Positions 11,759 to 51,100 of a DNA stretch of 64,000 nt are shown one piece after another (the first letter of the stretch is position 1; each line of letters opens with the position of its first letter). The position numbers were made by a program, and so were the translations under genes. The stretch covers positions 2,046,001 through 2,110,000 of the forward strand of contig NC_086374.1 of NCBI RefSeq assembly GCF_036588685.1, in the 5' to 3' direction. The notes below the pieces were generated by a model, which ran no database searches, had not been told where the DNA came from, and saw nothing but the letters and a program-made list of their open reading frames with translations. Source of the stretch: Mytilus trossulus. Taxonomy: Eukaryota.

Positions 11759-12014
11759 TTTGTAGTTGATAAGTTAGTCGGACACTCAAATGTAATCCTG
11801 AAACTTGAGCCTAGCGGTACTCAGCCGCAGGAGTTCGTTTACACACCCACTAAAATTTGTTTTTTTGCGGTTGTTTTGAAATAATTTCAAGACCAATGCA
11901 GTTTTTTCAATAAACCTTGATTGTCAAAATGTTTAGGGTAGTGTATTATGTTAGTTTCGTCATTGCTCATGTCGAAAAAAGATACTTTTGAGACTACTTT
12001 CCCATTAGTATAGA

Positions 12015-20083: not shown

Positions 20084-21973
20084 ATGGCTCAACAATTGGT
20101 AAGAGACGAAACGACCTGTACTGAAGTATTAGCTTATGGTATACCATTTAACTATGACGATCGGTCAGGTAAGAACAATGTGTACATAATTAGGGTATAC
20201 CATTTATCTGTTACCATCAGTCAGGTAAGAACAATGTGTACAGAATTATGGTATACCAGAAGATCGGTCAGGTAAGACCAGTATAAACAGAATTATTGTA
20301 TACCATTTAACTGTGGGAGTCGATATTAAGAACTGAACGATGGAAAGTTAGTGTGTGAATTTTTCTTGCTACCTGAGTGGAAGATATTACGAGACGTGAA
20401 TAATCAAAGTTTATTGATTGGTTAGGACAATGCAAACCTAGTAAATATCCTTCAATCCCGTAGAGTATCGGATTTGTCCAGTCTATTTCAGCAATTAGAT
20501 TTTACAACGTAGGTAACTTTTATCTATAAATAGTCGAATCTTCTGGAGCAAACAACAACGTTAAACGATATGTACTACTTTATAACGTGTGACCTCACGT
20601 GTGTGGTAAAATTTGTTTGATTGATGCACGTGGCTATTCTGGTAAATGAATTAATCTACAAAGCGAGAGCACCTTTCCTTTTTCATCAGCTAAGAGTCGA
20701 CTAGCCCTTTTTGAAAGGCTAATGCTTGTCAATGCATTAGCAATCATTAAATTGAAAGCAAAGGTAAACTTATCTTGTGTTTGTATAAGATCGAATAAGG
20801 TAGATAGGGTTAAAGGTCAGGCAAATAAAGGCAACAGAATTTAACCAGTGTTCAAAAGTCATAAATCGATTGAGAGAAAACGAATCCGGGGTACATCAAC
20901 TATAAGCGGAATACAAAGGAACAATAGGAACACTGAAATACAACAAAAACAAACGCCTACATACATAGAAACGAACTAATTGCTATAACAACCGCAATAT
21001 TACCGACTTGGTACGGACATTTTAAGAAAAAGGCTAACACTCTTTATGAAATAACCAATTGAGAAGTCTTTTTTATCTTATTTATAAAGAGGTAAAAAGA
21101 ATAATTCCTGATATCAAATCTTCATTGGGATCTTGAACATTCATTGCTTTATATGTAGAAGATTGATAAAGAATTGCAAAATAAAAAATTGTCTTAATTG
21201 TAGGTAATTGGACTCCATGGAATTTATCCAATTTTTTAGACGGTGCTGAGTTGCAGGGTGCTGAGACATTGGTATTTATGGATTGCAAAAGATGGAATAA
21301 TGAAAACAAGCTATGTGTGAGATTAAGACAAGTTATGGTTATAAATCCTGAAGTTTTCAAATATAATCATATGACAAGAACAAAGTTGCAGATTACAAAG
21401 ACGTTTGAAAAAGTGGGCACAACGTCACTCATATTTAGAACAAAATTAAAAGACGTCAACACAGGAACAATTTTGGTAGATAGATACATGATGGAAGTGG
21501 GAATTAATACCTCGTCACGCAGACCAGAAAAGCATTCAGATTGGTTTATTCAGAAATATTCTGGCTTAAAAGATACTGAAGTACCATTAATGACCAAATC
21601 TGAGATACCAACACCTCCTCTTAATTGTTTTACACAGACACTTGTTGTCCGGTACAGCGATCTTGACTGTAGTTATCATACAAATCAGTCAGTGTATATC
21701 AAAATTTGCCATGATTGCGCAGCTGCAGCATGTAATTCAAAACAGCTCTTGCCCTTTGAAAGTGATATTGGTCTGTATTCAATCCGGTTTATCGATGTTC
21801 GTTACCTAGGGGAAACATTGGCCGAAGATAAACTATCTATTAATGTATGGCAGGATGATGCTGACAAAGCCACCTTAAACTTTGTCATTTACAAGGATGA
21901 AAGGAAGGTCAACTACACAGTCATGAAACTTGACCTGCAGAAATCAACCAGAAATAGCCAATCAAAACTATAA
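20084..21973 (+). CDS. Double-hotdog acyl-ACP/acyl-CoA thioesterase-like protein, copy 1 (284 aa; exons 20084-20168, 21204-21973), C-terminal SKL
   Basis: A phase-1 GT-AG intron joins the exons in frame; VRYSDLDCSYHTNQSVY and RYLGET match Fat-type thioesterase motifs; same exon structure as copy 2. Confidence 0.85.
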
Positions 21974-26497: not shown

Positions 26498-26749
26498 TAA
26501 GTCGGCCACAATACATTCAAGGAAAAGAGTTAACGATAATATTTGGATCATTTCTGTTTCTCATATCATTTTTGAAATGCCACCAATTTTTCAAAAATAA
26601 TTATTGTCATAACTGGTCACCACATCTGAACAATGAACTGTTGACATCACTCAATGGTAAATAAATTCATAGTTTATGTTTCTTTTTTTATTTACACACT
26701 TTTTTGTTGAAGCATGTAGTCGTGTTGCTATCGTTGGTTGTTGAGGTCT

Positions 26750-27200
26750 TTGTGTAATGGTATAACAAGTTAAATCTGACCGTTTGTTTCTGTTATGAGT
26801 TGATTCACGTTTTGCTAGTCTAGAGCCTTGTATTATATGTCTGTTCGTGTAATGGTATTACACTAAATCTGACCGTTTGTTTCTGTTATGAGTTGATTGA
26901 CATTTTGCTAGTCTAGAGCCTTGTATAAGAGGTCGTCATGTAATGGTATTACACTAAATCTGACCGTTTGTTTCTGTTATGAGTTGATTCACGTTTTGCT
27001 AGTCTAGAGCCTTGTATAAGAGGTCTTCGTGTAACGGTATTACACTAAATCTGACCGTTTGTTTCTGTTATGAGTTGATTCACATTTTGCTAGTCTAGAA
27101 CCTTGTATAAGAGGTCTTCGTGTAATATGGTATTACACTAAATCTGACCGTTTGTTTCTGTTATGAGTTGATTCACGTTTTGCTATTCTAAAGCCTTATA
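26750..27200 (+). repeat. 91-93 bp tandem repeat, 5 copies
   Basis: taaatctgaccgtttgtttctgttatgagttgatt at 26771, 26864, 26955, 27046 and 27139. Confidence 0.92.
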
Positions 27201-27807
27201 CAACTTATCATATAAGGGAATGTGTTTTGCTTGTCATTGAAAGCCGTATGATGACTAATAGTAAAGGCCTGAACATATCTTATTAATTTTGGATTATTGA
27301 ATAAAGGATCTTAATTGAATGATACATTGTTGTTTGCATTACGTCCAGTGGATCATATTTCATGCATTAGGACGAGAACGCATTTAAAATACAGTGGATT
27401 CATGAGTATTCGTTGGATATATATTTTCGTTGATTTTCTGGTATCATTTGAACAACATATTTTTATGTACACCATGACTTGCTTCTATAAATTGTCATTG
27501 AGGGTCGGTGGAGAGAAAAAAAAGAAGGGAAAAATGATATGATATAAAAAAGAAGATGTGGTATGATTGCCAATGAGACAACTATCCACAAAAGACCAAA
27601 ATGACACAACGAAGTACAAATTTCTTTTGTTTTGTATGCATACGCTAGTAACAGCACGAAACCAATATCAACCAAAATGTAACTTTTCCGTAACCAATAA
27701 AATTGGAACACACGCAAATAAAATGAACTCACAGTTATCTTGAAATTATCATGATACAACAACTGTATAATATAAAATTGGCATTATTTTTACAGTGAGA
27801 GGGAATA

Positions 27808-29491
27808 ATGGCGCAACAGATGTCACGTGATGATTGTGATTGTACAGAAGTATTAATGGCGGGTGTACCATATAACTTTGACGACAGGGCAGGTTTGATA
27901 ATTTTATACTATATTGTCTATGTTATAACTCCTTGAATGAGACTGTCAAACAAGTGAGAGGTTTAGCGCCATAAAACAAGGTTCAATCCACCATTTTCTA
28001 CAGTTGAAAATGCCTGTACCAAGTCCGGAACACGACAGTTGTCCATTCGTTTTGATGTGTTTTGGCATTTGATTTTGCTATGTGATTAGGAACATTCCGA
28101 TTGAATTTACCTCGAAGTTCAGTATTTTTGGGATTTTACTTTTTGCCACTGAAACAAAAAAATAGTTACAAGTAATATTAATGTAAATTACCAAGATGGA
28201 TAACTGAAAATAATACATTACCAAATGTTACACGCGGTCAACTGTAACCAATATAGAATTACACTAGTTTATTGTTTGTCCGGATTTCACAAAAACTAAA
28301 TTAGTCTTATATATCTGATGCGTCAAAGCTGTCAGTAATGTGCTACCTAATTTTTTATCAACGATCGTACAGTATTCAACTAAAAAAAACACTTTTAACA
28401 ATTATAGATTGAATGTGCACCTCGCATTATATAGGCATTTAGATACAGCAACGGAACATACAATTAAAAGACATAAAGAGGTGTCCATACCATATACCTT
28501 GTTCTAAGTTGTGAATAAGTTAAAGATAACTATATAGTTACCGACGTCTATTATAGAGCGCTAAACATAGCGACTTCTACTATCTTAATTGAGTTATAGA
28601 TTGCTATTTATAGTTGCCGACTTCTACTATCTGAGTCCAGGGTACTTTTAGTAAATATCTATATTAACTCGCTACACTATATAAACTGTTATTGACACTT
28701 TAGGTCGATGGAGCCCATGGAATTTATCAAACTTTATAGACGGAGCAGAATTCCTTGGCAGAAAGACAGGACATTTTATGGATTATAAAACCATAAAAAC
28801 GGAGAATACGATGTACGCAAGAATATTACAGACTATGACCATTAATCCTATGGTGTACACGTATAACTTTCTGAAAAAGGCACAACTCAAAATCACCACG
28901 AATCTTGAGAAAGTTGGTAATACTTCAGTGATCATAAGATCTAAACTGTCCGATGTATTATCTGAAACTATTTTGGCGGATAGATATATTAAAGTTGTAC
29001 AGATCAGTGCAAAAACACGCAAACCAGTCAAATACCCGGAGTGGTTCGAACAGAAATATTCCTATCTTAAAGAAACACCTGTGCCACAGTACCTTATGTT
29101 TAAATCTGAGATACCAGAAGCTCCTGCTGGTTGTTTCATTTATAAAACTATTGTCCGTTACAGTGACCTGGACTATAATGCCCACACAAATCAAAGTGTA
29201 TATGTCAAAATGTGCCTGGATTGTGCGACCGCTGCCAGTTGTAAAGGTCTACTCGTATCGTTTAATAGAGATATTAGTTTATATCCTCTTGTATATTTCG
29301 ACGTGCGTTATTTAGGAGAAACGTTTACTGGTGACGAACTTAAGGTTTGCCTTTGGCAGGAAGACTCGGACCCGTCTATCTTAAAATTCATCATATGTAG
29401 GAACGAAAGAAAAAAAGTTAATTATACCACCTTTAGGTTTAATCTCCAAACGACAGTCTCGGAATTTACACGGAATGTTTCTAAACTATGA
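27808..29491 (+). CDS. Double-hotdog acyl-ACP/acyl-CoA thioesterase-like protein, copy 2 (290 aa; exons 27808-27892, 28704-29491), C-terminal SKL
   Basis: 85-nt first coding exon MAQQMSRDD...FDDRAG homologous to copy 1; VRYSDLDYNAHTNQSVY and RYLGET motifs. Confidence 0.87.
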
Positions 29492-31421
29492 CCCCTACAG
29501 TATCAGAATTCACAAGTTTTCAACTCGGAATATTATACGTAATATCTGAATCTACACGTTGAAAACTCTAAATCCAACAGTATATCACTATTCAGAGAAA
29601 GTTTCAGAAGTTCTACAGTATCATAATTCAACAGATGTAAACTCTGATTTCTAGAGTTTTAGAATTCATGCATAATATTTCTGAACTCTGAATTCTATAC
29701 AACTCGAAATTTTACAATGGATATTAATTGTTAAGCAGACTGTAAACGGATCATCATGCATAATACTTGCTCTTTTTGAGTGAAACATTTTGTAATCTCT
29801 CTCTGTAACAAATGGCAACATTCATGTTTTTTTTGTGTATTTTTTTTTATCCCCTTTTGTAGATATTGCATTTAGGAAAAGTCTGTTTACATTGTTAGGT
29901 TCATGTTTATAATCACAGAAAGAAACAGTTCATAGTGTCATTATAAAAGAAACAGTTCAAAGTGGCATTATATAAAAACAGTTCTGTGAAATTCAGTCTG
30001 TGAATCTGATTGTCAGTTGTGGATGTTCGCATCTGTCATTGAAATGATAATTATTAAAAATACAATTTAAAAAAAAATATGATTTTATTGACCTGATTGG
30101 TTGTTGGTTCTTAAATGTTAAATGGTATATATTTCCTAGATAATCAGGACGAGAATAAATTACAATTGATACCAAAATAAACTGGTTTTGATAGGTAGAC
30201 CGGAATGTATGGATAGAAAATGTAGACGGCCACTTGAAAATGACTGTTTGCTGGATGAGGACAGAAGTTTTACCTTTCAATTTTAAACATACGCCCCCCC
30301 CCCCCCCGTCCCCCCCGATAAATATTGTAAGGATATTTTAGCATGCAGAAAGCGTAAAATTCATCCTACATGGCTCATCGTAATAAATATCGACATGCCG
30401 ACCTGACCGATTATTAAATTTGAAATAAATTTTATGAAATGTTTGGATATAAATGTAGATTTGTAGGGTTCACGCTATTTAGACCAGTGTCGGGTATCAT
30501 AATCGGTATTCATTGATCAGGCGAAATGTACATTTTAGTACGCATGACATCTTTTTTTAAATGAACTTCAACAGGTTAGCTCAAACCCTAAAGTTCGAAT
30601 GTCAAAACATCTTAAATGAAAGAGTATAAAAACCAAAGCTGACAAATAAAAACTTTTAAAGTCACGTCAGGGCCAAAGTTAAAGTCTAAAGAAATATTTT
30701 TTCTGAAATAATTGTTTATAATTAATTCTGCATTACAGCAATTTAAACGACTACAAGTATTTGAAAACTTGTTTAAACCTTTTCTAAAATTAATTAATAT
30801 TCTTTAAAATGATATGTTTATAACAGTTTAAGTACACCGATTACACATTTGGTTAATCTGTCATTAGAATGTTATTCATATGTTATTCTTGTATTGAGAT
30901 TAAGAGGTGAATATATATACTCAATAATTAGGTAAACCTTTATAACATTGGCAAGAGAAGGTAGGATTTTATATTTTACAACCACACAAGTAGAAAAAAC
31001 GTGAATCTTTGAATCTTTTTAAAAAAGTTACGTATTGGGATAGCTTGAAGATTGATTTATAAAATTCAGATGATACCCTATATATGTATACATCTTTAAT
31101 ATAACCTCTGTTGCAATGTTTTCTATTCGTGATACGCAATCAACAATGAATTACTCTGATTTATTAGTAAGTCAAAGTTTCACTACTTTCGATTTTATGA
31201 AACCGTAAGTTTTGATACACCATATAAAAAAGAAGATGTGGTATAATTGCCAATGAGACATCTCTCTACAAGAAAACAAAATGACACAGAAATTAACAAC
31301 TGTAGGTCAACATACGGCCTGCAACAATGAGCCAAGCACATAACGCATAGTTATAAAAGCCCCCAGAATGAAAATGTAAAATAATTCAAACGAGAAACTA
31401 ACGGCCTTATTTATACAAAAA

Positions 31422-31888
31422 AACCTAAGGGTTCTGCGGAACCCAGTGTCTCGCCTAGTTTTGCTGTTAATCACACACTCACCAAAAATGATGAAAAATA
31501 CCATCTTTTAATTGCCAGAAGCTTCTGTCCAAGTTTGGTAAAAATCCAGGATAGTTAAAAAATCTTAAAAATGTTTTAAAATTTTGAACTGCAGACTGTA
31601 TGTAATGTTAACTGGAAGAAAAACTAAGTCTATTTATAAGTAAAATACGGGGAAAATGGGAATTTTATTTTTACAAAATTAACTTCTGGATACTATCTTC
31701 TGATCATAAACAAGCTTCTGGCCAAGTTTCGTACAATTCCGGGATAGGTTAAGAAAGATATTAAAATTTAAAAAACTTTAACTACAGAGTGAATATTTGT
31801 TGATGCCGACGACGACGACACCGACGCCGACGGAATGTAGGATCGCTAGGTCTCGCTTATTCGACTAAAGTCGAAGGCATGACAAAAA
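31422..31888 (-). mobile_element. Helentron-type non-autonomous element inserted in another interspersed repeat
   Basis: Terminal hairpins ttcgactaaagtcgaa and gggttctgcggaaccc, (gac)n microsatellite; interrupts the host repeat at an A/T run. Confidence 0.65.
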
Positions 31889-32996
31889 TGAACGAAAAAC
31901 AAATATGTGACACTTAAACAATCGACAACCACTGAATTACAGGCTCCTAACATGTACTACGTATGCCAATACTAAGAAGATGATATTATTGCAAATGAGA
32001 CTACTTAAATAACAAAAACAAAGATATCTCCAATAACTGGTGACCATACGACCTAACAAAAATGAGTCAAACCTTCATGATACAGTAAAAATTAACAGAA
32101 ATACCGAACACCAAAAGATAAATTCTAACGGAAATTCTCTTATCAAATGACAAAACCAAAAGTTCAAACACATCTAACGAATGGAAAACAACTGTCATGT
32201 TCTAAATTTGGTACCTGCATTTACTGATAAAGAAAGAGGCGGATTTAACCTGATTTTATAGCTACTTCAACCTCTCGCTTGTATGGCAGTCGCATATAAT
32301 TCCATCATATTGAAAACAATTTGTTAGCACAACAAACATGAATTGAACGATCTTGTAGTAAAGGCAAGAATAATATACCGCTGTTCAATAGTCAGGAATA
32401 TAATATACCGCTGTTCAATAGTCAGGAATCGACTAAGTAAAGACAAGAGTAATATACCTCTGTTCAAAAGTCAGGAATCGCCTAAGTGAAAACAAATCCC
32501 GGTCACAAACCTAAACCGGAGGAAACACATCAATTATACGGAGTAAAGAACGGAACAACAGAAACACTGTCAAACTGTCAGAAATTGTGATAGAGCAGTC
32601 AACATTGTCTTATAATCTTTATTAATTTTAACACAAACAACTATGTCAGCATAGAAAAACAAAATGGAATATAGACACTCTATAGACAGAGCACATGAGC
32701 AAACATGAAATAAAAGTATACAAAGAATGAATATAGCACACTAACAAAGGCGGAGTGTTTAAAAATACCAAGCCACAGCATAATGATATTACACATATGT
32801 TTCTGATGCGATGGTAGGGAACATTACAAAATATGTTTGATTTCAGTAGTTTATGTCTTCGTTTGTGCTTGTTTCTTCACTCATGAATGTACACATAGTA
32901 TGTTTATGCTGATGGCTGGTGTAGTTTTCTTTTCCTCGGGTAACATTTACCTCCATTTTTAAAACTTCATATATATTTTCATAGATAATCTTCATA

Positions 32997-35191
32997 ATGG
33001 GATGTGCATCATCAGCTGACACTGGGACAGAATTTATACAGTTCGAAAAGAAGAAACCATTAAATAATGACAATGCGGTGGTTATTACTCCCCGGCCGTC
33101 GTCCTTTCAACAAAAAGACCAAGACAACACATCATTAAAAACAAAATCAGAGAATTCGGACCTTTCTCTATCGCCATCTACCGATCAGAGAGAACGAGAA
33201 GATACTATACTGAAGACAGAAACTCCGAATTCTAACCCGTCGCCTATTGACAAGAAAGACCGAGAAGACACAATGCCGAAGTCAGAGAAATCAGATATGT
33301 CTGAACATAATAGACCACCATCCCAATATGTAGATGACAGTACAAATATAAAGCAAGATTATGACCGACCTCAATCATTTCACCAAAGTGATCACGGTAA
33401 AAAATCTCCAGACAAGGAAATATCACAGTCAAGAGAATCTAGTGGACGTACAAAAGATGTGATGATTGTAAATACTACGAATAATGAAGAGAAGGAGGTA
33501 GTATAAATTGCTTATTTTCGAATAGTAATTAACGTGTATAAAGTATATACATACAAGTGAGAGGTTAAGCATTCAATCCACCGTCTTTTACATTTGAAAA
33601 TGCCTGTTACAAGTCAGGAATATGACAATAGTTGTCCTTTCGTTTAATGTGTTTTGGGTCCTCAGCGCTCTTCAACTTTGTACTTGTTTGGCTTTACAAC
33701 TATTTTGATCTGAGCTTCACTGGTGAGTAATGTAGACGAAACACGCGTCTGGCGTATTAAATCATGATCCTGGTACCTTTGCTAACTTTGATTTTGCCAT
33801 TTCATTAGGGACTTTCCGTTTTAAAATTTCCATGGAGTTAGTATTTTTGTGATTTTACTAATTATCAACCTACCGTAAATAGTTATCAAAGGTACCAGGA
33901 TTATAAATTAGTACGCCAGATGCGCGTTTCTTCTACATAAGACTCATCAGTGACGCTCACATCAAAATATTTATAAAGCCAAACAAGTACAAAGTTGGAA
34001 GGGCATTGAGGATACAAAATTCCCAAAAGTAGTGCCAAATACGGCTAAGATAATCTTTGCCTTGGATAAGAAAATCCTTAGTTTTGTAAACAGGAAATTT
34101 ATAAAAATGACCACATTATTGATATTCATGTCAATTCCGAAGTGCTGACTACTGGGCTGGTGATAAAAACTTTAATAAAGCAACCACTTAGAAATCCTCT
34201 GAAACTATTATGATGAATGCTGTTTTATAAATGAGAGAGATAAAAAATGCTCCTTGTAAAATTGATTACAAAAATAAAAATAACACTATATGAATGCGGT
34301 AATAATTTCTTTACTCAAATCTAAAACTTTGAAAAGCCAAGAATGTTAAAGAACATTAACTCGCCAACGGTAAAAAAAATATGAATAGTAAAATCTTACT
34401 TGGTTCAAGTTTGCCTACTGTTAACTTTATAATGATGAATAATAAGGCACGGATATGTGTAACCATGCCTAGCTTACCTTGTTATATCAACTCTTATCTT
34501 TATTTTTCTACAGCGAAAACCTTCATCTTCTTCATCATCTTCCTCATCGTCATCTGAAGATGAAGGTGAATCAGACGATGATAAGAGAGACTCGGATACA
34601 AGACTACTGGAAACTAGGGATTCTGAAACCAGATTTATGGAAACCAACGAACAAAATTCTGTTAAAAACTCGGAAACCAACGACCTTGATGATAACCGAG
34701 GCTCGGAAATGAACGGTTATACTCCAATAGGATCGGAAACCAATGATCATAAGTCACCAGATTCCGAAACGAATGAACGAAAAATGAATGATGACGGTAT
34801 TTCAAAAACAGGAGATGCAGAAAAAGACGAAGCAGACGTCAACCTAAATAATTTTGTGGGAACGGAAGAACTGACAAAACCTGTTGAAATCAACGAAACT
34901 ACAGAAATTATCCAACCAGAAGAAAAATATTCAAATGAAGAAGGTGCAGCAAATGACAATTTAACAAAAACCGAGGAAGTCGAAAGCACACATGCTGTAG
35001 AAGGAGAAAGTGTTGATGATACTGAAACAAAAGCGGAACCAAATGATACAAGACCCACGGAGAAACGCGACAATGAATCGTCTGAAAATGGTCTTATTAG
35101 TTCGAAAGAAGTTGACTCAACTGAAAATAACTCTGAAAAGTCACCACAAGGAATTGACCATACGGAAGAGGAGGACATGCCTTTCACTTAA
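32997..35191 (+). CDS. Uncharacterised acidic, low-complexity protein (392 aa; exons 32997-33497, 34514-35191) with predicted N-myristoyl/S-palmitoyl MGC motif
   Basis: Two long open hydrophilic frames joined in phase 0 by GAG|gtagta ... ttctacag|CGA; Ser run followed by a D/E/T/N-rich tail; splice acceptor just upstream of the ATG. Confidence 0.78.
33655..34165. mobile_element. Two retrozyme-family fragments in inverted orientation within the orphan-gene intron
   Basis: Degenerate hammerheads at 33712-33756 (+) and 33912-33959 (-), with shared flanking family sequence. Confidence 0.7.
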
Positions 35192-36117
35192 ACACGCAAA
35201 TGTATCACATATAAAACCTATAACTGTTTTATACTCTTAAAATATAGAATGATAATCGAAGGAATAATGATACAATTTGTTTCACTGTATAAAATCATCG
35301 GAATTAAAGTACAGTATGCCCACATTTAGTGAATTTGTGGTTTTAATGATAACTTGTTATAAGTATAAAAATATATATCACCTGGCTTCACTTGATGAAC
35401 TATTTGTCGAAGAAAAACACAGAAAATACATATGCAAATAAACAGCTATGTAAAAAAACAAAATATTCCTCTTTCTTTTAAATATGTAACAAACAATTAT
35501 GATACAGCGACATTATGGTAGATATGGAGTCAAAATTAAGAACAACAAAAACAAATTATATTTTGGAAAACACGTAGTTTATATGATGATGTTTAAAAAA
35601 ATATACAACGAAAGATTTGAGTCTCGAAGCTTTTCTGCAAGCTTTTAGTTGTGCAACATTGTGTATAGACTTTTAACGTAAAGTAGGTAACGATAGCTCT
35701 TATGAAAATAATAAAACGTGGTTTATCGTATTCAATATCTTGAATTATCAAATTAGAAAAATGTGCTGTCTATTTCTTTATATATCCAAGTTATCTGCTC
35801 CTATATAACAAAGATTTCAAATTTGGATTCGAAGATAAAAAAAAAATATGTGCCAATTGTAATTTTGAAACAGATTTTATGTCATAGAAATATCAAATAT
35901 GAATTACATTTATTTCCTTTTCAAAATATTTAAAGATTTCTTAGTGTTTTTTTAAAAGGTATTATATTTGTAACCGGTTTATTGATAACAGTTTGATGAT
36001 TATACTGTTTGTATCTTTTTTATTCTTTTTCCACATTCATTCAACACTATCTTTATATTTCAGTATTTATTCCAAGACTTGTTTATCTATTTAACAAATA
36101 TATTCTTTCATCTCCTG

Positions 36118-39100
36118 TCATACGTGTGCTACTCTGGAATAATAAAAAAAGCTACTGTTTATATTTGTCCATCTTTCACTTAGTGTATCCGTGCTATGCT
36201 TATGCTTTTGAGGTTTATTAATTTCACTTTGTATTGGGGAGCATGAAACTTTGAAACACTGTATTTACTACTCCGTTGACCGTTAAGTTTATATATTTAC
36301 ATGGAGCATGTAAAAAACTAGGGGAAAGATATCTGAACGCTTAGTACCATTTTTTTCATTTACGAAGATAGTTGCGAATGATAAGTTGTCTTTTACTATT
36401 GCAAAATACATATTTAGGGTACTGCGATCATGAGACTTATTACTGGATTTGAACTAACATGAACAACACGAGAGGTGCCTCGCGTGGTGTAAGATTTGCA
36501 TACACTGTGGTACACACAGTTGTTGGCGAGTTTCGTGTCACGCAGTATTTAGTTTTCTATGTTGTGTTTTGTACACGGCTATTTTGTTTTATTGTGGAAG
36601 GTATTTCTATAGTGGCATTTTTTTGGTTTTTTTTCCATGACGTATTCAGATTGTTTTTGACATGCGTCTTTGTTATCTTTCGCCTCTCTTACTTACTAAC
36701 AATTTATTTATTCATTGGTGTCTTTGTAATGCACATTGTATTGTTTATAATGTACAGTAAATACATCTTATGACTTTTATCCTAACTTACGTTATTTCAA
36801 TTGCACATTCTGAATAAATTGCCAAAGAAAAATCGTTTTCGTCCTCTTCACTATTACAGTGAATAAGTAGTAGATATGTTCCCGCTTTTACTGTGTAACA
36901 TGTGTCTACAGAAGTTCCGAATTGGAAAGGGCCATCACCACCCTCACTGTCTCTCAGAGCATTGCCATAGTTGTCATTCAGCCAGTCGTAATTTGCCGGG
37001 AAACCCATACCTCGATGAGCCTGTAAATGTATGTACGTATCTCTTTTTAAAGACGGAAGACATTTTTCACCTTTTAAATCTTAAACACAGTTTTCTGATA
37101 CTTTTCTTTGTGCAATATACTTGACATTGCTGATGTCAACTTATATAAAAGCTTTCTATATGATATGATAATTTCCTCTATACTGCATCTAATTTTTAAT
37201 GTGTTGATCGCATGTAGTGTTTTCCATGCTTTATGTATATTTGGCAATCCAAATGTCCGATATCATTTTTCCTAAATAATAAAACATATATCTTTACTTC
37301 AAGCAATTCAATAGATTCACTTACTTCAAATAATTTGATACCAAGTGCAAATCCATCTTCTCTTTCTGGTTGCATAACTTCAACTCTAAATGTTTGTTCT
37401 GAAATAGTTTGAGATTAACATTAATGATTAACGAAAACGTGTTCATCATTTGGTCTTTATCAATAAAATATGTCATCGCTTCCCATAATTTCATTGACAT
37501 TTTATTTAGGAAACAAAGCCCTGGTAAATCGAAACACGCGTCTAGCAGACTACATTAAAGGGATGTTATCTCCTTGCTTAACTATATTCTTGCGTTTCTA
37601 ATTATAATCAAACTGTTTCACTTGTTATGTATTCATGCTTGATACTTGAAGCAGTTTGTTGGACTATTTGTTAAGTATACATACATATGTACAGGTTTTT
37701 CTTAATTCTAAGTAATTGTCGTTTAGCGCTATAAAACCAGGTTCAATCCACTATTTTCTACATTTGAAAATGCCTGTACCAAGTAAGGAATATGACAGTT
37801 GTTATCCATTCGTTTGATGTGTTTTATTCTTTGAATTTGCCATTTCCGTTTTGAATTTTTCTCGTAGTTCAGTAATTTTGTGATTTTACTTTTTTCGCTC
37901 ACTATCTGTTCTTACCGTCATGAACTTTCAGTTGATACTGGGGGTTATTTGCTACCATTCGCCCACTATTTCATTAATATCTGTTCTTACCGTCATGAAC
38001 TTTCAGTTGATACTGGGGATTATTTGAAAACTCGTCACTTGCTATGGTTCCACCAGCATTTACACCTCTTTTAAATGCACCAAAAGAACATTTGGTACAT
38101 TCTGAAAAGTAAATTTCTTAAATGAATTTCGTATGAAACAACAAGAATACACTTTAAGCAAACATAGAAAAGTTGTCTAATGATTATTCGCTGATTTTGA
38201 ATATATTGGCTATAAGCATTTCATTGTTGTTTTGTTTCAAAGTCTTTGTTCACCTGTTTAATTTTTTTCATTTCGGCCTGTATACAATGTTGCCTGTATG
38301 GCAAAGTTTCAACACAGAATTTGTTTATTTTGTTTGTATGAATCCATTAAAAAGACTTCAAAACTTAACGTACTACTCGCCTTTTAAAATACTATATTGA
38401 TTTGTGCTTTGTATGCAAAGGCAGAAACCAACTATTGTTTGATGGTAACGTTTAAACACTTATAATAATACGTTTTATAAATGATTTTTAAAAAATCAAC
38501 CGTTTTTTTTACAACTGTCAAGCGACAAGTGAGAGGCTCAGCTAGCTATAAACAAGGTTTAATCCATCAGTCTACAAAAGAAAATGCATAAACAAAGTCA
38601 GGAATATGACAGTTGTTGTCCATTCGTTTGATATGTGTGAGCTTTTGATTTTGCCCTTTCAAGAGGGACTTTTCGTTTTGAACTTTCCTCGGAGTTCAGT
38701 ATTTTTGTGATTTTACTTTTAATTATACTGTCTGTCCGAATTATAAAAGAGAGGCGAAATATACCAAAGGGATCAGAAGGACCAGAGGTTGAAAATAAAC
38801 TGACAACGCGATGGATAAATACACAATTTCTTTCATTTAATCTTTACATAGTTTATTCAGTAAATAACTTAAATGGATGAGATATCAGGCTACATGCTTT
38901 CTTTAACGTGAATTTAGTTTTTGTGAGGAGAAAGTTACATGTACCTCACATAATGTCAGTATATGTGAGTCTAATGATCACTATAACATGAAACATGAAA
39001 ACTTAATTAAACGCCTATTTCTACATATACAATATGTATTCAATGGCGTTGTACATAAATGACATATAAAATACAAAAATACTAAACAAAAATACAATAT

Positions 39101-42100
39101 GTATGTACAATACCAAAAATTGAAAATTTATACTGTGATACACAAGAAAAAAGTCAGAAAAGTTCAAAATAATTTTGGAAATACAATGCTTTCAACCGAC
39201 ATTTAAAAATATCCAAAGATTCAGAGTTTCTTACATTTGTACCTAGTTCATTCTACAATTTTGGCCCAATAGTACTAAAACTTCTATCTGAAAAAGTTTT
39301 CTTTTTGTTATATGGGACTGCATAACAACCAATAGATGACTCTGACGACCTTAATGAACGTTTCGACACTTGAGGATTTAACAAATTGATCAAATATGAC
39401 GGTGCATTACCTACATGACAGTTGTACATATATGTTAAGATTTTAAATGTACTTCTGGCTTTGATCGGAAGCCAGTGTAAGTCAAACAGTGCCTGCTTGG
39501 CACTGCTTGGCCTGCTTATAACGTTATTATGTTATGCGTGAATACAAAAGTTAGGTCGTGTGAGTGCAAAACTACTATTAGTATATTTTAGCATAGCATT
39601 TGTGAGTAAAATGTTATTTTACCATGATTGTAGTACTTGCGAGTACAAAACTTACTAAAACTTGAATTTTCAGCAGGTTTGTCGCCATTTCTTCCCCTTC
39701 CTGTCATCACAGTAATGTTGTCTACTTCACTGAAATTTAATGATTGCTTTAATAAATAGAATGACAGATATGATATGAAACAAAGAAAAATGGTAAGATT
39801 CCTAATAAGACAACTATGCAAAGCGAGTAGAAATGATGAATCTTTTAAAGAACTATTGTCACCATTAACATAACAGGTAAACTGATAAAAAGTGAAAACT
39901 ATACTTAATGAATTTCACAGGTTCGAATCGCTTTTCTTGATTAACTGTAATTAAGAACACTTAAATTCAGAACTATGACAGCCACTGATATGGTTTTTTT
40001 TAAAAGAACCGAAATAGTTGAATAGCTATATGACCGAAAAGAACATAAAGTAATAAACAAATAATTTGTGAACAGTTTGTTAGAAATCATATCAGTACAG
40101 AAGCCATGACTACTAAATTGATGATATTGTCAAGGACAGATAGTCCACCAGCAGCGGTATCGACCCAGTGCTTTCAAAAAAATTAAACGCAAAGAAATTT
40201 CATATGATTAAAAATATAACATGACAGATAAGATTTAAATATCATTTAAATTCAATGATAGTTCTAATTAGTTATCAACGGTACCAGCATTTTAATTTAA
40301 TACGCCAGACGCGCGTTTCGTCTACATAAGACTCATCAGTGACGCTTAGTAGTTATAAAGCACAGGCACTTGTCTCAGAAAAAAAATTACCTCTATACCT
40401 TAATGTTATATTAAGGTATAGAGGTAATTTTTTTTCTGAGACAAGTGCCTGTGTTATAAAGCCAAATAAGTACGAAGTTGAAGAGGATTGAGGACTAACC
40501 AATAACATTACAGATAGGGTATCAATTTCAATTTCATTTTGAAAAAAAACCGGATTAGCACAAGCAAAACACTTTTTAATAAGGTAGACACATTTTTATC
40601 TATTTAACATACATTCAAAACGATGGAACGAAGATAGCGTTGATAAAACAACTTACAAGCCAAAACTTTAAAGTGTGTCAATTTAAATATGACGAAATCT
40701 GGTCTAGTTATTGAAAGGGAGGGGACGGGGTGGTGTTAACATAAGACTGGTTTGTTGAACTCATAAAGTCTTTACCTACTAATCATAGCAATAGTTATTT
40801 TTCTTTGTTTGGTCATATTTTCTGTCAACGAAATCGCGTGTTTGTGGTCGGCTAGACATGAGAAAAGCAGATATGAAACCCAGAGTAAAGACAGTACTAA
40901 CAGGAGAAGATCTCAGTGTATAGAAAATTGTCTTGTACAGTGTTGTGATGAGAAAAGCAACACATATATCTTATTGTACTATTGTACAATAGTCAATAAC
41001 TAGGGAAGAGCCACATGTCTTCATTATTTTGCAAGCGTCACATACAGGAAAAGAGCCATACAGATACTTTATAGTATGGACAGCATGCCCATGTGAAGAA
41101 CTCATGAATACAAGATACATTATAATACACACGTTTCTGACAGGAGAAAAGCCACACATATACTTTATCATACAAACATCACCGACAGGAGGAGAAGAGC
41201 CACAAAGATACGTTATAGTATGGACAGCATTTTAATTAGACATGTCACACATTTACAGTATTATTCAAACCTCATTGACAGAACAGTCACAAAAATACTT
41301 TATTGTATCAACTGCATTGTCATGAAAAGAGACACACATATACTAGTACCTTATTACAAAAACATGTACGCCAAGAGAAAAGCTGCAAAGATAACTTTTT
41401 GAATAGAAAGCAATGACATGAGTCAGTCCAAAAAGAGGGACGAAAGATACCAAAGGGACAGTCAAACTCATAAATCGAAAATAAACTGAAAAGGCCAAAA
41501 ATGAAAAAAGACATGCAGACACACAATAGTACACATGACACAGAAAGTTACTTTATTGCAAGGGGATCATTACCAGGAAAACAGTATGTAAGATGCCACA
41601 CTGTATAGACAGCGATTGCTGATATTGATCAAGGAAGACATCTTATTGTACAAAGAAGATAGGTGAATATATATATAGTTTTAAAAATTGTAACTAAGAG
41701 CAGGCATAATAACTTTTTTTGCTTTGATTATTATATTCTAATTTGAAACCTACTGAGGATTTGACACAGGAGCAGCGGAAAAAAATCTGATGAGGAACTC
41801 TTTTTCATATCCAGCTTCCAATGTCGCGGGTATAGCAATATATGAACCTGGTTCAACAAGGAATCTGTATGTATTTTGTACATTGCCCATGTATATGTTA
41901 GACTTGTCACCTAACAGTTCCAGGGAAACACAATGGTCGTTTTTGCCGAGAAGCTAAAATATAGAAAAAACTTCCGAGGTCTTATACATTATTGGTATAC
42001 ATTTACCTTTACATAAACTTTTACTGAGAAGTTACCAAATAGCTTCACTAGATATATAATCACACAGTCATGTCCAATCTGATAATAGCCATTTATGAGA

Positions 42101-45100
42101 GAATTTAGTGCTATGATAGTCAACTGCCATCAAATTATTGAAAAAAATAAATAAAGAAAGAGCATTTGTTATGGACTTCTATTTTTTTGGCTGATGCATT
42201 TAAAGTTTAGTACATGTTATGTTATGTTCTTTTCGTCTTATCACACTGGGTAAGTAAATAAGTACACAATTATACTCTCCCAATCCCTTTTCAAGATAAT
42301 CACCTACCAAATTTTACTATGAGCAACACGATGGGTTTCATATGTGGAGCAGGATCTGCTTTCCCTTCCGGAGCTCCTGCCATTACCCCCAGTGGCGGGT
42401 TCGTGTAGTTACGTCTTTAGTTTACTATGTTGTGTGTTTGTGCCTATAATGTTTCTGCTTTTATGTTTTTATTTTTCTTATTAAGCCATGACTTTGTAAG
42501 TTTATTTTCGATCTATGAGTTTGGCTGTCCCTCTGGTATATTTCGCCCCTCTCTTTTCTAGCGTAGTTTACATTATGATCTACACTTAACACTTTATATA
42601 AATTGATGACATACAAAGACACATACCTTGAATAGATCGCATCTGACTTCAGTAATGTCATTCCTACTCTCCAATGTTCTTTGTACTATCTGAACAACAA
42701 GGGCAACTTTACCTTCATCGTCCATTGCTACAGATTCAAATACATATACAAATAGTTATCAAAAGTACCAGGATTATAATTTAGTACGCAGGACGCGCGT
42801 TTTGTCTACATAAGACTCATCAATGACGCTCATATCTAAATAGCTATAAAGCCAAACAAGTACAAAATTGAAAAGCATTGAGGGTCCAAAATTCCAAATA
42901 AATTGTGCTAAATACGGCTAAGGTAATATATGCATGAGACAAGAAAAATCATTAGTTTTTCGAAAAAATCTAGTTTCATGTCAACATCGAAGCCTGACTA
43001 CGGGACTGGTGATACCATCGGGGACGACACGTCCACCAGCAGTGGCATCGACCCAGTGGTGTAAATAGTAATCAAAATTACCAGGATTATAATTTAGAAC
43101 GCCAGACGCGCGTTTCGTCTACATAAGACTCATCAGAACTTAACACTAAAAATTATATTGCAGCTTTTTTGCTGAACACAGAATAAAGAAATAATATATG
43201 TAGATATTTTTACGACTTCAGGATGCAGCCAACAATCTGTTTTACTGAATATGTTCATTTTGTTAATTTATATAAAAGATATATTTTTGAAAAACGATGG
43301 CTTTTCTTCCTCAGGAATAGATTACCATAGCTGTATTTTGCAACAGTTTAGGAATTTTAGTCCTTAATGCTCTTCAACTTCGTTCTTTATTTGGCTTTTT
43401 CTAACTTTGTAGGATTCGAGCGTCACTAATGAGTTTTTTTATAGACGAAACGCGCGTCTGGCGTAAATACACAATTTCATCCTTGTATCTATGATGAGTG
43501 TATTTCAATCGTCTTCACATTTCTTTTTCTAGCATCATTATTTTAAGGCGTATAGGTAAACACTGCTGCAGTGGTTGAAATGTTTAAAACGAAAACATAC
43601 CTTTATCGCCGAGTGTAACACTGTAACATGGATTCTTTGTTCGTTGTTCGAATCCACCATTCTTTCCATCACGCCAGTTTCCATATATACATGTAACGTA
43701 GTCTGAAAAATAAAAGAAGTTGCCAATTACAAATATTTTTATTACAGTCACTGATATCCAATTTTGAACAGCGGTATACTTCTGTCGCCTTTATTTACTA
43801 AATACTTTAAAAAAACACTTTTGAACCTTATACAGGGGTGTGAAGTATGGCTGTATCGACCAAAACATTACTTAATATATGACAATACACAAATTCAGAG
43901 TTGCTTTTAAAGCTTTTTGACGGAACAGAATTCAAAGGAACGAAAAACAAACGATTTTTTCACCAAGCCATATGATTAGTGTAGCGTCTGCAAACCCTTT
44001 TTTAATCAGAATAAATTTTATCTACACCCCCTTTTATTTTATCATACTTTATAAAGTATTTGTAATTATAATGAAGGTGTATGTAATGAAATCTTGACTA
44101 CTTTCAAAAGTCCCATGCCATATTGATATCAATTTCCTTTGATTGTTGTGCGCTTAGAACCGTTGTTTTATCAAGTCCCATTTTTAGTGCACTAGTATTC
44201 GTTTCACTTATTTTATGAGTGTACATTGTAAATTTTTGAATTTGCAAATTCTCTGTGTAAGGGTCATTTATTTTATGCTGACTAGTGATTTAGTGTACAA
44301 GAATAGTTATACTTGCGTTTTCTTACTTAACATATCAGGAAATCCATCTCTGTCGAAATCCGGTGTTAGATTACAAATGGTACAATCATCAAAGTATCGC
44401 AGAAAATCATTTATATCCATATAAAACTCTCCGTCGTCTTTTGAAGGGTGTGGGACACAGTCTGATGGGGCAGTTTTCCATTTAGGACTCCTAACAAAAT
44501 TGTTATATATTCAGTTAGATTAATACAGTCCCTCTATTCTTAAGATCGTATAGTATTTCGCACAGTTTAATAGAATTTTATACATTGTATCACATTTCAC
44601 CATCAAAATCAACAGAGATACATTCAACAACGCTTAAAAACAAAATTAAATTAATTATTATTAAATAGTGTCTGGCTGGCTGTATCTGTTTTGTAAGAGT
44701 TCAATTTGTGAAAGAATTTATTTTTATCGGTAGCCTAGAATTATGGTTCCTTCTTTACGCGTTGTAAAGGTTTTAGTGCACAATACAATTCTTTGAAAGA
44801 TTCGCAACACCAAACATCTAGAGGCCACTCATCTAGACAAACATGTGAGCTTGAATTCTCGAGATTCCCGAATGATATTATGACTTCAATATGTACGAAT
44901 ATATGGGGAGAAAACGAGCGAATGAGGTGCGTCCCTTGAAAACATGAACAAGTATTTTGTATAATCAATCGAAAGGAATCTAGAGACCATCATATTCGAA
45001 CTGTCCTTTATAATAAATGCGTTGTTTATGTCACCAGATAGAAAATTAAATACCTATCACTCCATGGGCCGTTCCATTCACCGTTGCCCCAGGGATTTCT

Positions 45101-48100
45101 TAATCTTAATAACTTGGCTTCACCTACCTACAAATTAAAAAAAAAGTTACCATTTAATTTTTTTTATCATTAATATTTTTTTTATAGTTTCATTGATTGT
45201 TTTTATTGTTTAATCTTGAAAATATCAGAGACCTTTGAACAAAAATCACTTTAATGTAAAAATAAAACAAAATTTGGAAATATTTTATCAGCTAATTAAT
45301 TTTACTTATAAATTTAGTTTGTATGTACAAAGTATCCACGATTCATGTTTACTAGTAGACCTTTTCAACATCTCTCGACACCTACAGTTGAGAGCGACTA
45401 CGACAGGTAAAATGTGAAGGGTCGTCTCAAAAATAAAAAAAATGGGATCATTATTGATTTTATTGCTTTCAATCATTGACAATGATAAAACTTTCCTACA
45501 GAGTCTGACAATCATGTTTTATTGTAGTTGATATTTGATTGAACAATGATTATGTCGGTTGACAAGGGCAGCACATGTCTGTTAGTTTTGGCCTTGGAAG
45601 CCTTCATTATGTAGTCAATACTTTGTATCATTTCAATTCACCAATTTGGTGTTCCACTTGAATTCTGTATTCACCAATCACTACTTAAATGTTGTAACAA
45701 TGAAACGAGGGGTCAATTATATTTTTTTCCAAAATTCATCAAGGAAAAATTTAAACTCGAACAAGATATCTTGAAGCAGAGAAGATAAAAAAAAAACCCA
45801 AAAAATGTGATAGTTTCCTTCGACCTAAAAAAAAAACCGGCAAATATTTGGCGAAGGACTCACATAATCACAAAAGTGAAGAGAAAATGGGTTAGGATCC
45901 AGAATGATTGGAATATTTGTTTAATCAATTCAACATGAAATGTCGTGCAAATACATACGAAATAAAAATATTATATGACAGAGACATATGTATGGTGGAC
46001 GGATGCGGACGTTTCCCCTTTTCGTGTTTTCGGGGAAATCCAGAAATCGAGAAAGCGAAATTGAGAAATTGAATAATCGGAAAATCGAGAAATTAAGAAA
46101 TTGGGAAATCGAGAAATAGAGAAAGCAAAAACGAAAAATCGAGATTTCATTTCGCGTTTTTGTGTTTTCTCTTTCTTGTTTTTGGCGTTTTTGCTTTCTT
46201 GATTTCTCGATTTCCCGATCTTATCTATTTCCGAATTTTTCGATTTCCCGATTTCTCGATTTCTCGATTTTGCTTACTCGATTTCTCGAATTCCCATTTT
46301 GCGTTTGCAAAATGAAAGGAGAAGTCACGAAAACGCTAAAAGGCGAAATAAATGGCCGCATCCGGCCACCATACATATATTTATTTATTTATTTGGTTGA
46401 TATATATTCTTAAACTATATAGTCAAAACAGTATAAAAGCGCCTATCCAATATGTTACGTAATGATAATCATGATGTTTTTTGTCTTTGAGACGACCCAT
46501 CCATTTTACCTGTAAACTGTAGGTGTCATTAGTCGGTGTCGAGAGATATTGAAAAGGTCTAATAGCTATTTAAAGATTTTTTTAAAATTGTAAAACCACA
46601 CTTCTTGAAATGCTGTATACTTAGTATTTGAGAACACCCCCAGTTTTTGGTGGTGTTCGTGTTCTTATTCTTTAGTTTTCTATGTTATGTTTATTTTACC
46701 ATTGTTTGTCTGCTTGTATTCTTTTTTGATAAGTCATTGCGTCATTTCTGACTCATAAATTTGAATGTCTCTCTGGTATCTTTCGCCTCATTTAAAGCAA
46801 ATAATTTAGATTGTACTTCTTAATATAGCAGTCTTATTGAAAAAAAACCAGGCTTCTTCGTTTTGCCTGTAAATGAAAATAAACTTACAATAAAAGCTCC
46901 GTTTATGGAATAAGCGTGACCTCCTACCAATCCACGTTTACCGTCGTTTTTATCCTAAAAAAATAAGAAAAATACCCAACCCCGAGTTAAATTTAATACA
47001 TTTGCAAAATCAAAAGCTGTCATATTCCTGACTTGGTGCAGGATTTTTTTAAAGTTGAAAATGTTGAATTGAACCTGGTATTATAGCTAGCTAAACCTCT
47101 CACTTATATCACGATATATGATCATATTTGTTAAAAAAAAATATATATATCAACTGAACTTACACTTAGTGAATGTGTCGGTGATTGATTGTTTTTCTCG
47201 TCAACTGTTTAGCTCACCTGGCCCAAAAAGCTAAGTGAGCTTTCTTTGGCGTCCTTCGTCGGTCGTTGTCGTCCGTCGTCGTCGTCGTCCTTAAATGAAC
47301 TTTTACAACAATCCTCTCTTTTTGAAACTACTGGGACAAATTTGAACAAACTTGTCAACAATCATCATTGGGCTATCTAGTTTAAAAATGTGTCCGATGA
47401 CACTTCCTGCCAATCAACATGACCGCCATGCCTAAATATATACATATAATACATCAATGTATCATGAAAGGCGCCTTTTATCAGCTATAGGCCACGTCCA
47501 TGTTCATTTAACATAGTAAGACAACCTAATCAATATCAATTTCAACAATCCTTCCAGGAAAAATCTTACCCTATATATTAATTTGTGTGTGTCATAGAGT
47601 TTTTTTTATCATTGGGATGATACTCATATCTTCCATTATTTACAGGTTAGACCTTTTGAAATCGATTAAGATCTTTCTTTGATGTAATCAAGGATTATGA
47701 ATTTAAAAAAGAACTTAATTGTTTAACATTGTCTTATCGGGGCTTTTTATAGCTGACTATGCGGTATGGGCTTTGCTCATTGTTGAAGGCCGTACGGTGA
47801 CCTATAGTTGTTAATGTTTGTGTCATTTTGGTCTTTTGTGGATAGTTGTCTCATTAGCAATCATACCACATCTTCTTTTTTATATTTAATAATAAACACA
47901 TCACAGTCAAATGTTTTAAAACTAATTCTTTTCTGAGATATTCTATGTTTAATTTCCATACCGGGCAATTACATCCAACCATAGTAGTAGGACACTGAAA
48001 GGCATTATGTAACCTTTGGAACAATCGTTTTGGGGAAATCTTTTCCTCCGTGAAGTCGATCCTCTCCGCAACTCCTCCTGTTAAGTTCAAGTAGGAATCC

Positions 48101-51100
48101 GCTGTTAATCCCTCGGTTATTTCAACGTAAGATCCATATAATCTGTTGATATTTGCATGTTCAATACTATAGTAATTCACAAATAGTTTTTTTTTTTTTT
48201 ATATTTGCATGTTTAATACTATAGTATTCACAAATAGTTTATTTTTTATATTTGCATGTTCAATACTATAGTAATTCACAATTATTTTTTTATATTTGCA
48301 TGTTCAATATTATATAAATTCACAAAAAGCTTTTTAAACAGAAAACTAACGATAATATATTTGATAGAGCGCACAAAATATTATCATTTTTTGTATTTAA
48401 ATGATAATGTATGTGTACTCCGTCAATCAGATGGAAATGACAAGATAAAAATACAAAGACTGTTACACCAAACAGTACCTGCCTGATACACCTGGGGAAA
48501 TATGAATAAAAGGAAATGTTGAAAAGTTGCGCCAAATACCGCTAAGGTAATGTATTCCTGGAATAATGAAACCGTAATAAAATGATATAATAAATAATAT
48601 AATATGAAAATAAATATGAAAACTGTTCCTTTGAGTTTTTTTTTTCTTACGTAAGTTGAGAAAAATGCTAAAACTTACTTTGCAAACGCCTTTTCCAGAA
48701 GAGCAACCCACATCTCATTTGGATCGGTTGCTGAATGCGCCCCAGCTATATTTGTTTCCTGCACAATTGGTAGGAAGTCGTCTATATAGGTATCATTCCA
48801 AACACCAAATCTCCAGAACCGACAGTGAAAAATCCCGTCATAACCATCCGAACCTATTTTGTAAGCATCTCTCGGTATTACCTGTAATTGAAAAGGAGAA
48901 ATTTGTTTCATGGATACCCTCTTGTTGTAAAAATGATTTAAGATTATTAGAATTGCTATGGTGATTCTTTATTGGTGTAGACGATAACGATTGAGCGTAA
49001 ACATCATATCATATGTTTTGATTCAAAAGAGGGATGAAAGATACCAAAGGGACACGGACAGTCAAACTAATAAATCGAAAATAAACTGATAACTAGACGC
49101 TCTCAAGAGCCTGTGTCGCTCACCTTGGTTTATGTGCATATTAAACAATGGACACAGATAAATTCATACCAAAATTGTGTTTTGATGATGGTGATGTGTT
49201 TGTAGATCTTACTTGACTGAACATTCTTGTTGCTACAATTATCTCTATTTATAATGAACTTGGCCCAGTAATTGCAGTGGAAAATATTTTCAAAAATTCT
49301 ACCAAAATTTATGAAAAATGTTAAAAATTGACTATAAAGGGCAATAACTCCTAAGGGGTCAACTGACCATATTGGTGGTGTTGACTTATTTGTAAATCTC
49401 ACTTTGCTGAACATTATTGCTCTTTACAGTTTATCTCTATCTATAATAATATTCAAGATAATAACCAAAAACAACAAAATTTCCTAAAAACTACCAATTC
49501 AGGGGCAGCAATCCAACAACGAGGATTCCAATTCATCTCAAAATTTCAGGGCAGATAGATTTTGATCTGATTAACAATTTTACTTGGTGTCAGATTTGCT
49601 TTAAATGCTTTGGTTTTTGAGTTATAAGCCAAAAACTACATTTTACCGCTATGTTCAATTTTTAGCCGTGGCGGCCATTTTGGTTGGTTGACCTGGTCAC
49701 GTCACACATTTTTTAAATTAAATACCCAAATGATGATTGTGGCCAAGTTTGGTTTAATTTGGCCACGTAGTTTAAGAGAAGATTTTTGTAAAAGATTACT
49801 AAGATTTACGAAAAATTGTTAAAAATTGACTATAAAGGGCAATAACTCCTAAAGGGGTCATCTGACCATTTCAGTCATTTGACTTATTTGTTAATCTAAC
49901 TTTGCTGAACATTATTGCTGTTTACAGTTTATCTCTATCTATAATAATATTCAAGATAATAACCAAAAACAGCAAAATTTCCTTAAAATTACAAATTCAG
50001 GGACAGCAACCCAACAACGGGTTGTCCGATTCATCTGATAATTTGAGGGCAGATGGATCTTGCCCTGATGAACAATTTTACCCCCATGTCAGAATGGCTC
50101 TAAATGCTTTGGTTTTTGAGTAATAAGCCAAAAACTACATTTTACCCCTAAGTTCTATTTTGAGCCGTGGCGGCCGTCTTGGTTGGTTGACCGGGTCATT
50201 GGACACATTTTTAAACAAGATACCCCAATGATGATTGTTGCCAAGTTTGGTTAAAGGCCTAGTAGTTTCAGAGGAGAAGATGTTTGTAAAAGATTACTAA
50301 GGTTTACGAAAAATGTTTAAAAATTGACTATAAAGGGCAATAACTCCTAAAGGGGTCAACTGACCATTTCGGTCATGTTTACTTTCTTGTAAATCTTACT
50401 TTGCTGAACATTATTGCTGTTTACAGTTTATTTCTATCCATAATTATATTCAAGATAATAACCAAAAACAGCAAAATTTCCTTAAAATTACCAACTCAGG
50501 GGCAGCAACCCAACAACGGGCTGTCCGATTCATCTGAAAATTTCAGGGCAGATAGAGCTTGACCTGATGAACAATTCGACCCTGTCAGATTTGCCCTTGA
50601 TGCTTTGATTTTTGAGTTATAAGCCGAAAACTGCATTTTACCCCTATGTTCTATTTTTAGCCGTGGTGGCCATCTTGGTTGGTTGACCTGGTCATTGGAC
50701 ATATTATTTAAACTAGATACCCGAATGATGATTGTGTCTAAGTTTGGTTAAATTTGGCTCAGTAGTTTCAGAGGAGAAGAATTTTGGATAAATTAACAAC
50801 GACGGACGACGACGGACGACGGACAACGACGGTGGACGCCGGACGCAAAGTGATGGGAAAAGCTCACTTGGCCCTTTGGGTCAGGTGAGCTCAAAATGAA
50901 ATAGACAAACAGACAAACAATAGCGCACATGACACAACAAAGAAAACTAAAGAAAAGAAACACGAACCCCACCAAAAAATAGGGGTGACCTCAGGTGCTC
51001 CGGAAGGGTAAGCAGCTCCTGATCCATATGTGGCATCTGTTGTGTTGCTCATGTTATAACAAATCCGGTAAAAAGTCTAATTCGGTAGGTGATATTCATA

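Follow-up and report, generated by a model that had tools for sequence, protein, structure and literature searches.

A predicted lipid-anchor start common to an acidic orphan protein and a neighbouring calpain array in Mytilus: a probable case of partial duplication

A 64,000-nt window of the Mytilus trossulus genome (contig NC_086374.1, positions 2,046,001–2,110,000; coordinates below count from the first letter of this whole analysed stretch) holds an orphan gene for a disordered protein whose first residues resemble those of a calpain encoded next to it, and the question is where this common start came from and what it does. The initial annotation, made from the sequence alone, took the orphan for a partial copy of the neighbouring calpain, old and inverted, that had kept its membrane anchor under selection, and suggested that it could act as a decoy, substrate or regulator of the protease.

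The first coding exon of the orphan (32985–33497, + strand) has an acceptor just before 32985, the ATG at 32997, 167 codons and a phase-0 GT donor; a GT-AG intron containing interspersed repeats (33498–34513) separates it from the second coding exon (34514–35191), which comprises 225 codons plus TAA and is E/S/D/T-rich, with poly-Ser and SETN repeats. The translation of 32997–33497 joined to 34514–35191 equals exactly the 392-aa M. trossulus RefSeq protein P0001, and a search with exon 1 found this protein (100%) together with one of 376 aa from M. edulis (77%). There are three RefSeq accessions for the orphan, which is known to databases by low-complexity resemblance only (‘starmaker-like’). 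We placed contigs from four public runs on 29000–48950; the types of these runs are guesses and none is on record as RNA. The initial annotation had held that the lack of a spliced transcript would speak against it, and exon-joining contigs are in fact present in at least two of the four runs (X4 and X13, with different organism labels and studies): X4 record 25 and X13 record 12 bridge the intron, the latter being placed from 32985 and carrying 30 extra 5′ letters. Moreover, an X1 contig begins at the acceptor of exon 2, and X15 records 17 and 18 read through the intron ends. In the putative 3′ UTR (35192–35683, +), X4 record 25 extends to 35417 and X1 record 5 to 35683, with poly(A)-type hexamers at 35303 and 35437 inside it and at 35710 just past its end. 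Because the joined form has canonical splice sites and the gene has three RefSeq accessions, the orphan is very likely a real spliced gene. That its exons might be the first exons of a plus-strand calpain was considered and rejected, as no plus-strand calpain exon exists in the window and the gene has its own stop codon and 3′ contigs. The orphan and calpain c1 are convergent neighbours, as had been claimed, lying tail-to-tail with 926 bp from stop to stop. Two further arguments, a splice acceptor near both ATGs and a phase-0 end of both first coding exons, are correct as observations (AG 12 nt upstream in the orphan and 23 nt in the calpain; exon ends at 33497 and 55220), but phase 0 is the commonest intron phase and the acceptor distances are unequal, so they add little.

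The body of the orphan protein is rich in S/D/E/T and has no protease domain, as first described: these four residues make up 48% of it, the pI is 4.39, the net charge is −48, and no Pfam family matches at E ≤ 0.1. Its Atlas model is disordered (pLDDT 0.36, pTM 0.09, no folded domain), an ESM Atlas feature search with residues 1–40 and with the whole protein gave no usable match, and among PDB sequences residues 1–36 had a single match, with an E of 1.2. G2, C3 and S/T6 of the MGCxxS/T consensus are all present, C3 being the only cysteine of the protein, and in other proteins this consensus leads to myristoylation and palmitoylation, according to the accessible text of PMC11569196. Residues 1–36 (32997–33104), which hold KKK at 18–20 and the first RPxS repeat, are identical between M. 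trossulus and M. edulis, and 268 of the remaining 340 are identical; the probability of such a run is 1.9e-4 if the segment is taken as preset and 0.024 if it is taken as the longest run anywhere. Over the whole protein the two species share 80.9% identity in the orphan and 89.6–97.3% in the calpain orthologs. The tail has a charge of −48 in both species and contains SETN repeats; three RPxS sites are common to both orthologs, and the most basic 25-residue window is net +3 in each. Thus, with 36 invariant residues set against a drifting tail, selection appears to act on the anchor and slightly past it, on a short extension with KKK, a short hydrophobic stretch and the first RPxS, in line with the idea of an anchor kept under selection, and the tail appears to retain charge more than sequence. 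For orthologs beyond M. trossulus and M. edulis, the exon 1, word-based and HMMER profile searches gave nothing but P0001, P0002 and a Logan fragment of 116 aa, and none in M. galloprovincialis, M. californianus or M. coruscus.

Calpain c1 (36118–55393, − strand; RefSeq P0030, 738 aa) has an MGC start, a CysPc domain and two C2-like domains, and no PEF domain. Its first coding exon (55220–55416, −; ATG at 55393) has 58 codons. The Cys, His and Asn motifs are intact and the AlphaFold model matches calpain structures in a fold search; Peptidase_C2 and two Calpain_III stretches, and no further family, were found in all six calpain proteins, and the M. galloprovincialis model P0028 continues in frame through the c1 leader. 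Next in the tandem array comes c3 (P0005/P0044), whose 3′ exons occupy 59986–63332 (−), and the array runs past the window; M. trossulus has four paralogs (c1–c4), of which c2 and c4 come from cluster look-ups that place them on a contig of equal length. Identity between M. trossulus and M. edulis is 89.6% for c1, 95.6% for c2 and 97.3% for c4, which points to faster evolution at the 3′ end of the array. In the public runs, the calpain contigs displayed deviate from c1 by 12–28 letters per piece. RefSeq P0030 ends an exon early at 47962–47980 (−) and so lacks six residues for which there are codons in the DNA ahead of a GT donor; close homologs retain them, and the loss is probably a model error or a minor splice form. 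In M. edulis the accessions of calpain c1 (XP_071158779) and of the orphan ortholog (780/781) are consecutive and their contigs equal in length, which indirectly indicates that the linkage is kept there. An MGCxxS/T start is found in 17 of 22 molluscan calpain homologs (P0003–P0024), from chiton to bivalves, which suggests that molluscan calpains with CysPc and two C2L domains are a likely lipid-anchored class, and a QYxxLG-like element after this start is common to the bivalve copies. A 700-aa isoform of c4 keeps residues 1–23 and omits the linker; hence the c4 anchor behaves as a separable module, as judged from an exon structure deduced from protein isoforms only. Three short oyster calpains (P0012, P0013 and P0018) and one from scallop (P0011) lack the MGC anchor and the linker and are the mirror image of the orphan.

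Elsewhere in the window, two tandem intron-free ORFs of 262 and 268 codons from stop to stop (21185–21973 and 28685–29491, both +) give weak matches to hot-dog thioesterases (Acyl-ACP_TE_C, 4HBT_2), and the part of the second copy that falls within 29000–48950 is covered by contigs of several runs. A short coding exon with a Met start (11447–11773, −), which we take to resemble the LRRFIP N-terminus, is a possible synteny anchor. ORF remnants at 12777–13709 (−), 16901–17695 (+) and 39253–39531 (−) look by eye like C-terminal parts of LINE reverse transcriptases, and self-alignment gave tandem repeat arrays at 49257–50901, 8714–9215, 2264–2845 and 26743–27203 with periods near 500, 60, 60 and 91 bp, respectively.

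The similarity between the two N-termini is as it was first described. Codons 1–17 of the orphan (32997–33047, +) encode MGCxxS plus DTGT-E-F-x-x-F-E, with G2 and C3 as the predicted myristoyl and palmitoyl sites, and comparison of ATG 32997 (+) with ATG 55393 (−) gives 10 of 17 identical residues and 31 of 51 identical nucleotides, with silent differences in 7 of the 9 identical codons other than Met. Only these two starts match ATG-GGN-TGY in the window, where 1.7 matches are expected by chance. The 10/17 figure is specific to the c1 allele of this genome; c3 gives 6/17, and a short deletion lowers c1 of M. edulis and of M. galloprovincialis to this value in ungapped comparison. That the match extends past MGCxxS is supported by 5 identities in the ten positions beyond the motif, with P of about 1e-3 to 1e-5 depending on the null, for a scoring window (8–17) that was chosen post hoc, after the match had been noticed. 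Over this window the BLOSUM62 score is 29 with c1 and, from 4 identities, 24 with c4. The probability of at least 5 identities with the best of the four paralogs is 1.7e-4 to 7.4e-4 (six compositions, 400,000 draws each), the permutation P is 1.0e-3, and none of 748 other 10-mers of the orphan reaches this level; the BLOSUM62 null gives 7.5e-6 to 8e-5 for the best of four paralogs and 5e-6 to 1e-4 for c4 alone. Against 12 non-Mytilus homologs with the acylation motif, the ungapped score over the same positions was 9, 9 and 9 for scallops, 0, −4, 0 and −6 for oysters, in which the spacing differs, and −9, −13, 2, −10 and −10 for gastropods and chiton. Similarity to the orphan therefore follows phylogeny (Mytilus > scallop > oyster, gastropod), and this gradient favours homology over a generic motif. 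BLASTP of the orphan against c4 found no similarity past residue 17, and in c1 DNA the upstream 300 bp, the remainder of exon 1 and the start of the intron aligned no better than shuffled sequence, their scores being reached by 152, 122 and 29 of 200 shuffles. The linkers differ in composition, S/K/D/E-rich in the orphan and P/Q/E-rich in the Mytilus calpains; a poly-Ser run and a VITP 4-mer that the orphan has in common with the c4 linker were set aside as low complexity at chance level by inspection and are unreported by BLASTP. A word-based search with residues 1–40 returned the two orthologs only (2 candidates), and a HMMER profile search gave 2 matches among 1.84 billion representatives; neither was sensitive enough to recover even the calpains. 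A degenerate DNA motif hit 23 loci in metagenome contigs (GC 0.44–0.71), none with a tblastn match to the orphan or the calpains, and these were dismissed as chance. The homology proposed here rests on about 6–10 residues outside the motif, and as a relation to part of one donor ORF (residues 1–17) it is borne out only modestly.

With so short a match, an unrelated acylated, acidic and disordered protein could by chance have come to lie beside the array, its residues 8–17 having drifted or been selected to look alike. The absence of homology past residue 17 and the unequal acceptor distances fit this account, silent sites near saturation are equally what an independent origin would leave, and the residues FE at positions 16–17, which seem to have arisen in parallel in orphan and calpain (see below), would show that such coincidences happen. 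On the other side stand the low probabilities across nulls, the empty 10-mer control, the gradient along the calpain phylogeny and the position of orphan and c1 within 1 kb of each other; moreover, C. elegans PEF-1, an unrelated protein that also has MGCxxS (its 14-residue N-terminus is given in the accessible text of PMC11569196), has nothing in common with the orphan at positions 8–14, a comparison made by eye with one control. Because the window was post hoc, the oyster spacing differs and the null contains no mollusc proteome, convergence is unlikely and yet retains a real share of the probability. A different account gives the common residues a function. Residues 8–17 would then be a docking or sorting motif, and the orphan, by analogy an animal counterpart of the anchor-only calpain relatives of kinetoplastids, would compete for the receptor or docking site of the calpains or serve as a dedicated decoy substrate or inhibitor. 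The calpain N-terminus is indeed conserved beyond the acylation motif across bivalves, also in the short c4 isoform, the orphan has similar residues at the QYxxLG positions in addition to its 36 invariant residues, and the SKCRPs of kinetoplastids are described in the accessible part of PMC4181241 as N-terminal-domain-only calpain relatives with dual acylation motifs. However, the Tyr and LG of the conserved calpain motif are altered in the orphan, and residues 1–101 of the c1 AlphaFold model (29-sequence alignment) fall below pLDDT 50 and show no docked segment. The core pattern of a calpastatin-type motif has 0 matches in the orphan, which has no Pfam family either; calpastatin also grips the PEF domain of calpain, and the neighbouring calpains have none. 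We regard this account as a long shot; if true, calpains that lack PEF, and for which no inhibitor is known, would have in the orphan a regulator held by a lipid anchor.

If partial duplication is preferred, the donor has to be considered, and c1 itself, copied once the edulis-complex lineage had acquired FE and evolving very fast thereafter, is one candidate. The top score is with c1, FE included; only trossulus, edulis and galloprovincialis have FE at positions 16–17, and only in their c1/c3 clade, c1 of M. californianus and M. coruscus retaining LG there; and the orphan was found in trossulus and edulis only. Against this, silent differences affect 7 of 9 codons between orphan and c1 compared with 20 of 105 codons (three exons) between c1 and c3 (Fisher P = 5e-4), c1 and c3 still give a 77% alignment 1090 bp long, most of it non-coding, but the flanks of the orphan do not align, and T9 of the orphan is the older state, which agrees with c4 and with Argopecten, Pecten and Mizuhopecten. 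Given the silent differences, the unaligned flanks and the late appearance of FE, the orphan is likely older than the c1/c3 split, and a recent copy of c1 is very improbable. In a tree of 30 calpain cores, whose rows do not include AplAty and outgroup calpain families, c4 is sister to c1, c2 and c3 (100/100), and the first 17 residues of c4 are unchanged in all four species. Hence, of the initial annotation, the old partial duplicate stands as the best explanation, but the donor was probably an older member than c1: the adjacent c1 is a young paralog and probably not the direct donor, which is likely to have been an earlier state of the array that is best preserved in c4. The FE common to orphan and c1 is probably a parallel change, and on this comparison the durable signal is DTGT-E-F of the orphan against DTGT-Q-Y of c4 (DTGT-[QE]-[YF]). 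As an outgroup comparison, calpains from chiton, gastropods, oysters and scallops have the MGC start, and the orphan was found in two Mytilus species only; we read the calpains as ancestral and the orphan as derived. An old origin implies that an ortholog is expected in M. californianus and M. coruscus, and the failure of the searches to find one there could reflect absent annotation, loss or fast divergence.

We thus favour, with a probability of about 0.65 on the sequence evidence, the reading that the orphan arose by partial duplication with recruitment from an Atypical-L-type calpain array, from which it took the anchor only, to become a membrane-tethered acidic disordered protein. A partial, inverted copy of an ancestral Mytilus calpain of this type, taken from its first coding exon, would have kept only the predicted myristoyl/palmitoyl anchor and no protease domain, and the tail would have grown by internal repeats (RPxS, SETN) and recruited sequence; the remainder of the orphan has no match in the window or in protein databases that would give its source. 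Predicted myristoylation at G2 and palmitoylation at C3 would make it a dually acylated peripheral membrane protein on the inner face of the same membranes as the calpains, where the polyanionic tail, much as in GAP43/MARCKS/BASP1, may form a scaffold or spacer open to phosphorylation and would not need the protease. The same anchor would co-locate orphan and calpains, and cleavage by the calpains is plausible. The suggested role as decoy, substrate or regulator finds no support here. A complex prediction for c1 residues 100–738 with orphan residues 1–40, in which the tool left the alignments unused, scored 0.00 and weighs neither for nor against it.

Calpastatin is an acidic disordered protein associated with calpain, but the orphan differs from it in having no inhibitory repeats or Pfam match. 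With GAP43, MARCKS and BASP1 it has in common an N-terminal fatty acylation motif, a pI near 4.4–4.6, disorder and many Ser/Thr, and unlike these proteins, as described in the available part of PMC6478813, it has no basic effector domain (only KKK), no Pfam match and no sequence relation; because the basic effector domain is missing, it is not a member of that group. The calpain c1 has the layout of the Atypical L (lophotrochozoan) calpains, CysPc and a duplicate C2L without PEF, MIT or C2, to which it is assigned by domain layout, and that class has molluscan homologs in the accessible text of PMC5650170. The Mytilus tandem array of 3–4 copies differs from that account as given there, and its main text, with 0 occurrences of myristoyl or palmitoyl, does not treat the MGCxxS/T start. 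In the literature searched, no title dealt with the orphan gene or with how atypical calpains of molluscs are acylated, nor was a lipid-anchor-only animal calpain offshoot or an acylation motif of the family found in that literature (most subscription journals and supplements lie outside it) or in the accessible text of PMC5650170 and PMC10762896. Like the kinetoplastid SKCRPs and small myristoylated proteins, the orphan would be a relative of the N-terminal part of calpain that has a dual acylation motif but lacks the protease domain; SKCRPs, in contrast, comprise about 200 aa of the conserved kinetoplastid domain I-K (PMC4181241, accessible part) and the orphan keeps about 17 residues, has no domain I-K and carries a lineage-restricted disordered tail. 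The origins are independent and the likeness is analogy only. Partial duplication with recruitment is itself common, and in the part of PMC3449122 available it is described, with recruitment or internal amplification, for the notothenioid antifreeze protein AFGP (from trypsinogen) and C. elegans fog-2 (from ftr-1). As with AFGP, a protease gene would have contributed its 5′ part alone to a new low-complexity protein, which gained a new body (PMC3449122, same part). Unlike in AFGP and fog-2, neither 3′ nor intron sequence showed homology to the donor, the c1 flanks, the only ones compared, containing no related DNA from which breakpoints could be read, and the retained part of the orphan is a predicted cytosolic lipid anchor. 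Regulation of calpains by the orphan, if it occurred, would add a new form of calpain control. The type of gene birth is already known and the retained part, a predicted lipid anchor, is unusual, and the favoured reading would give a lineage-restricted orphan a traceable origin, as a gene born from about 17 codons of targeting information.
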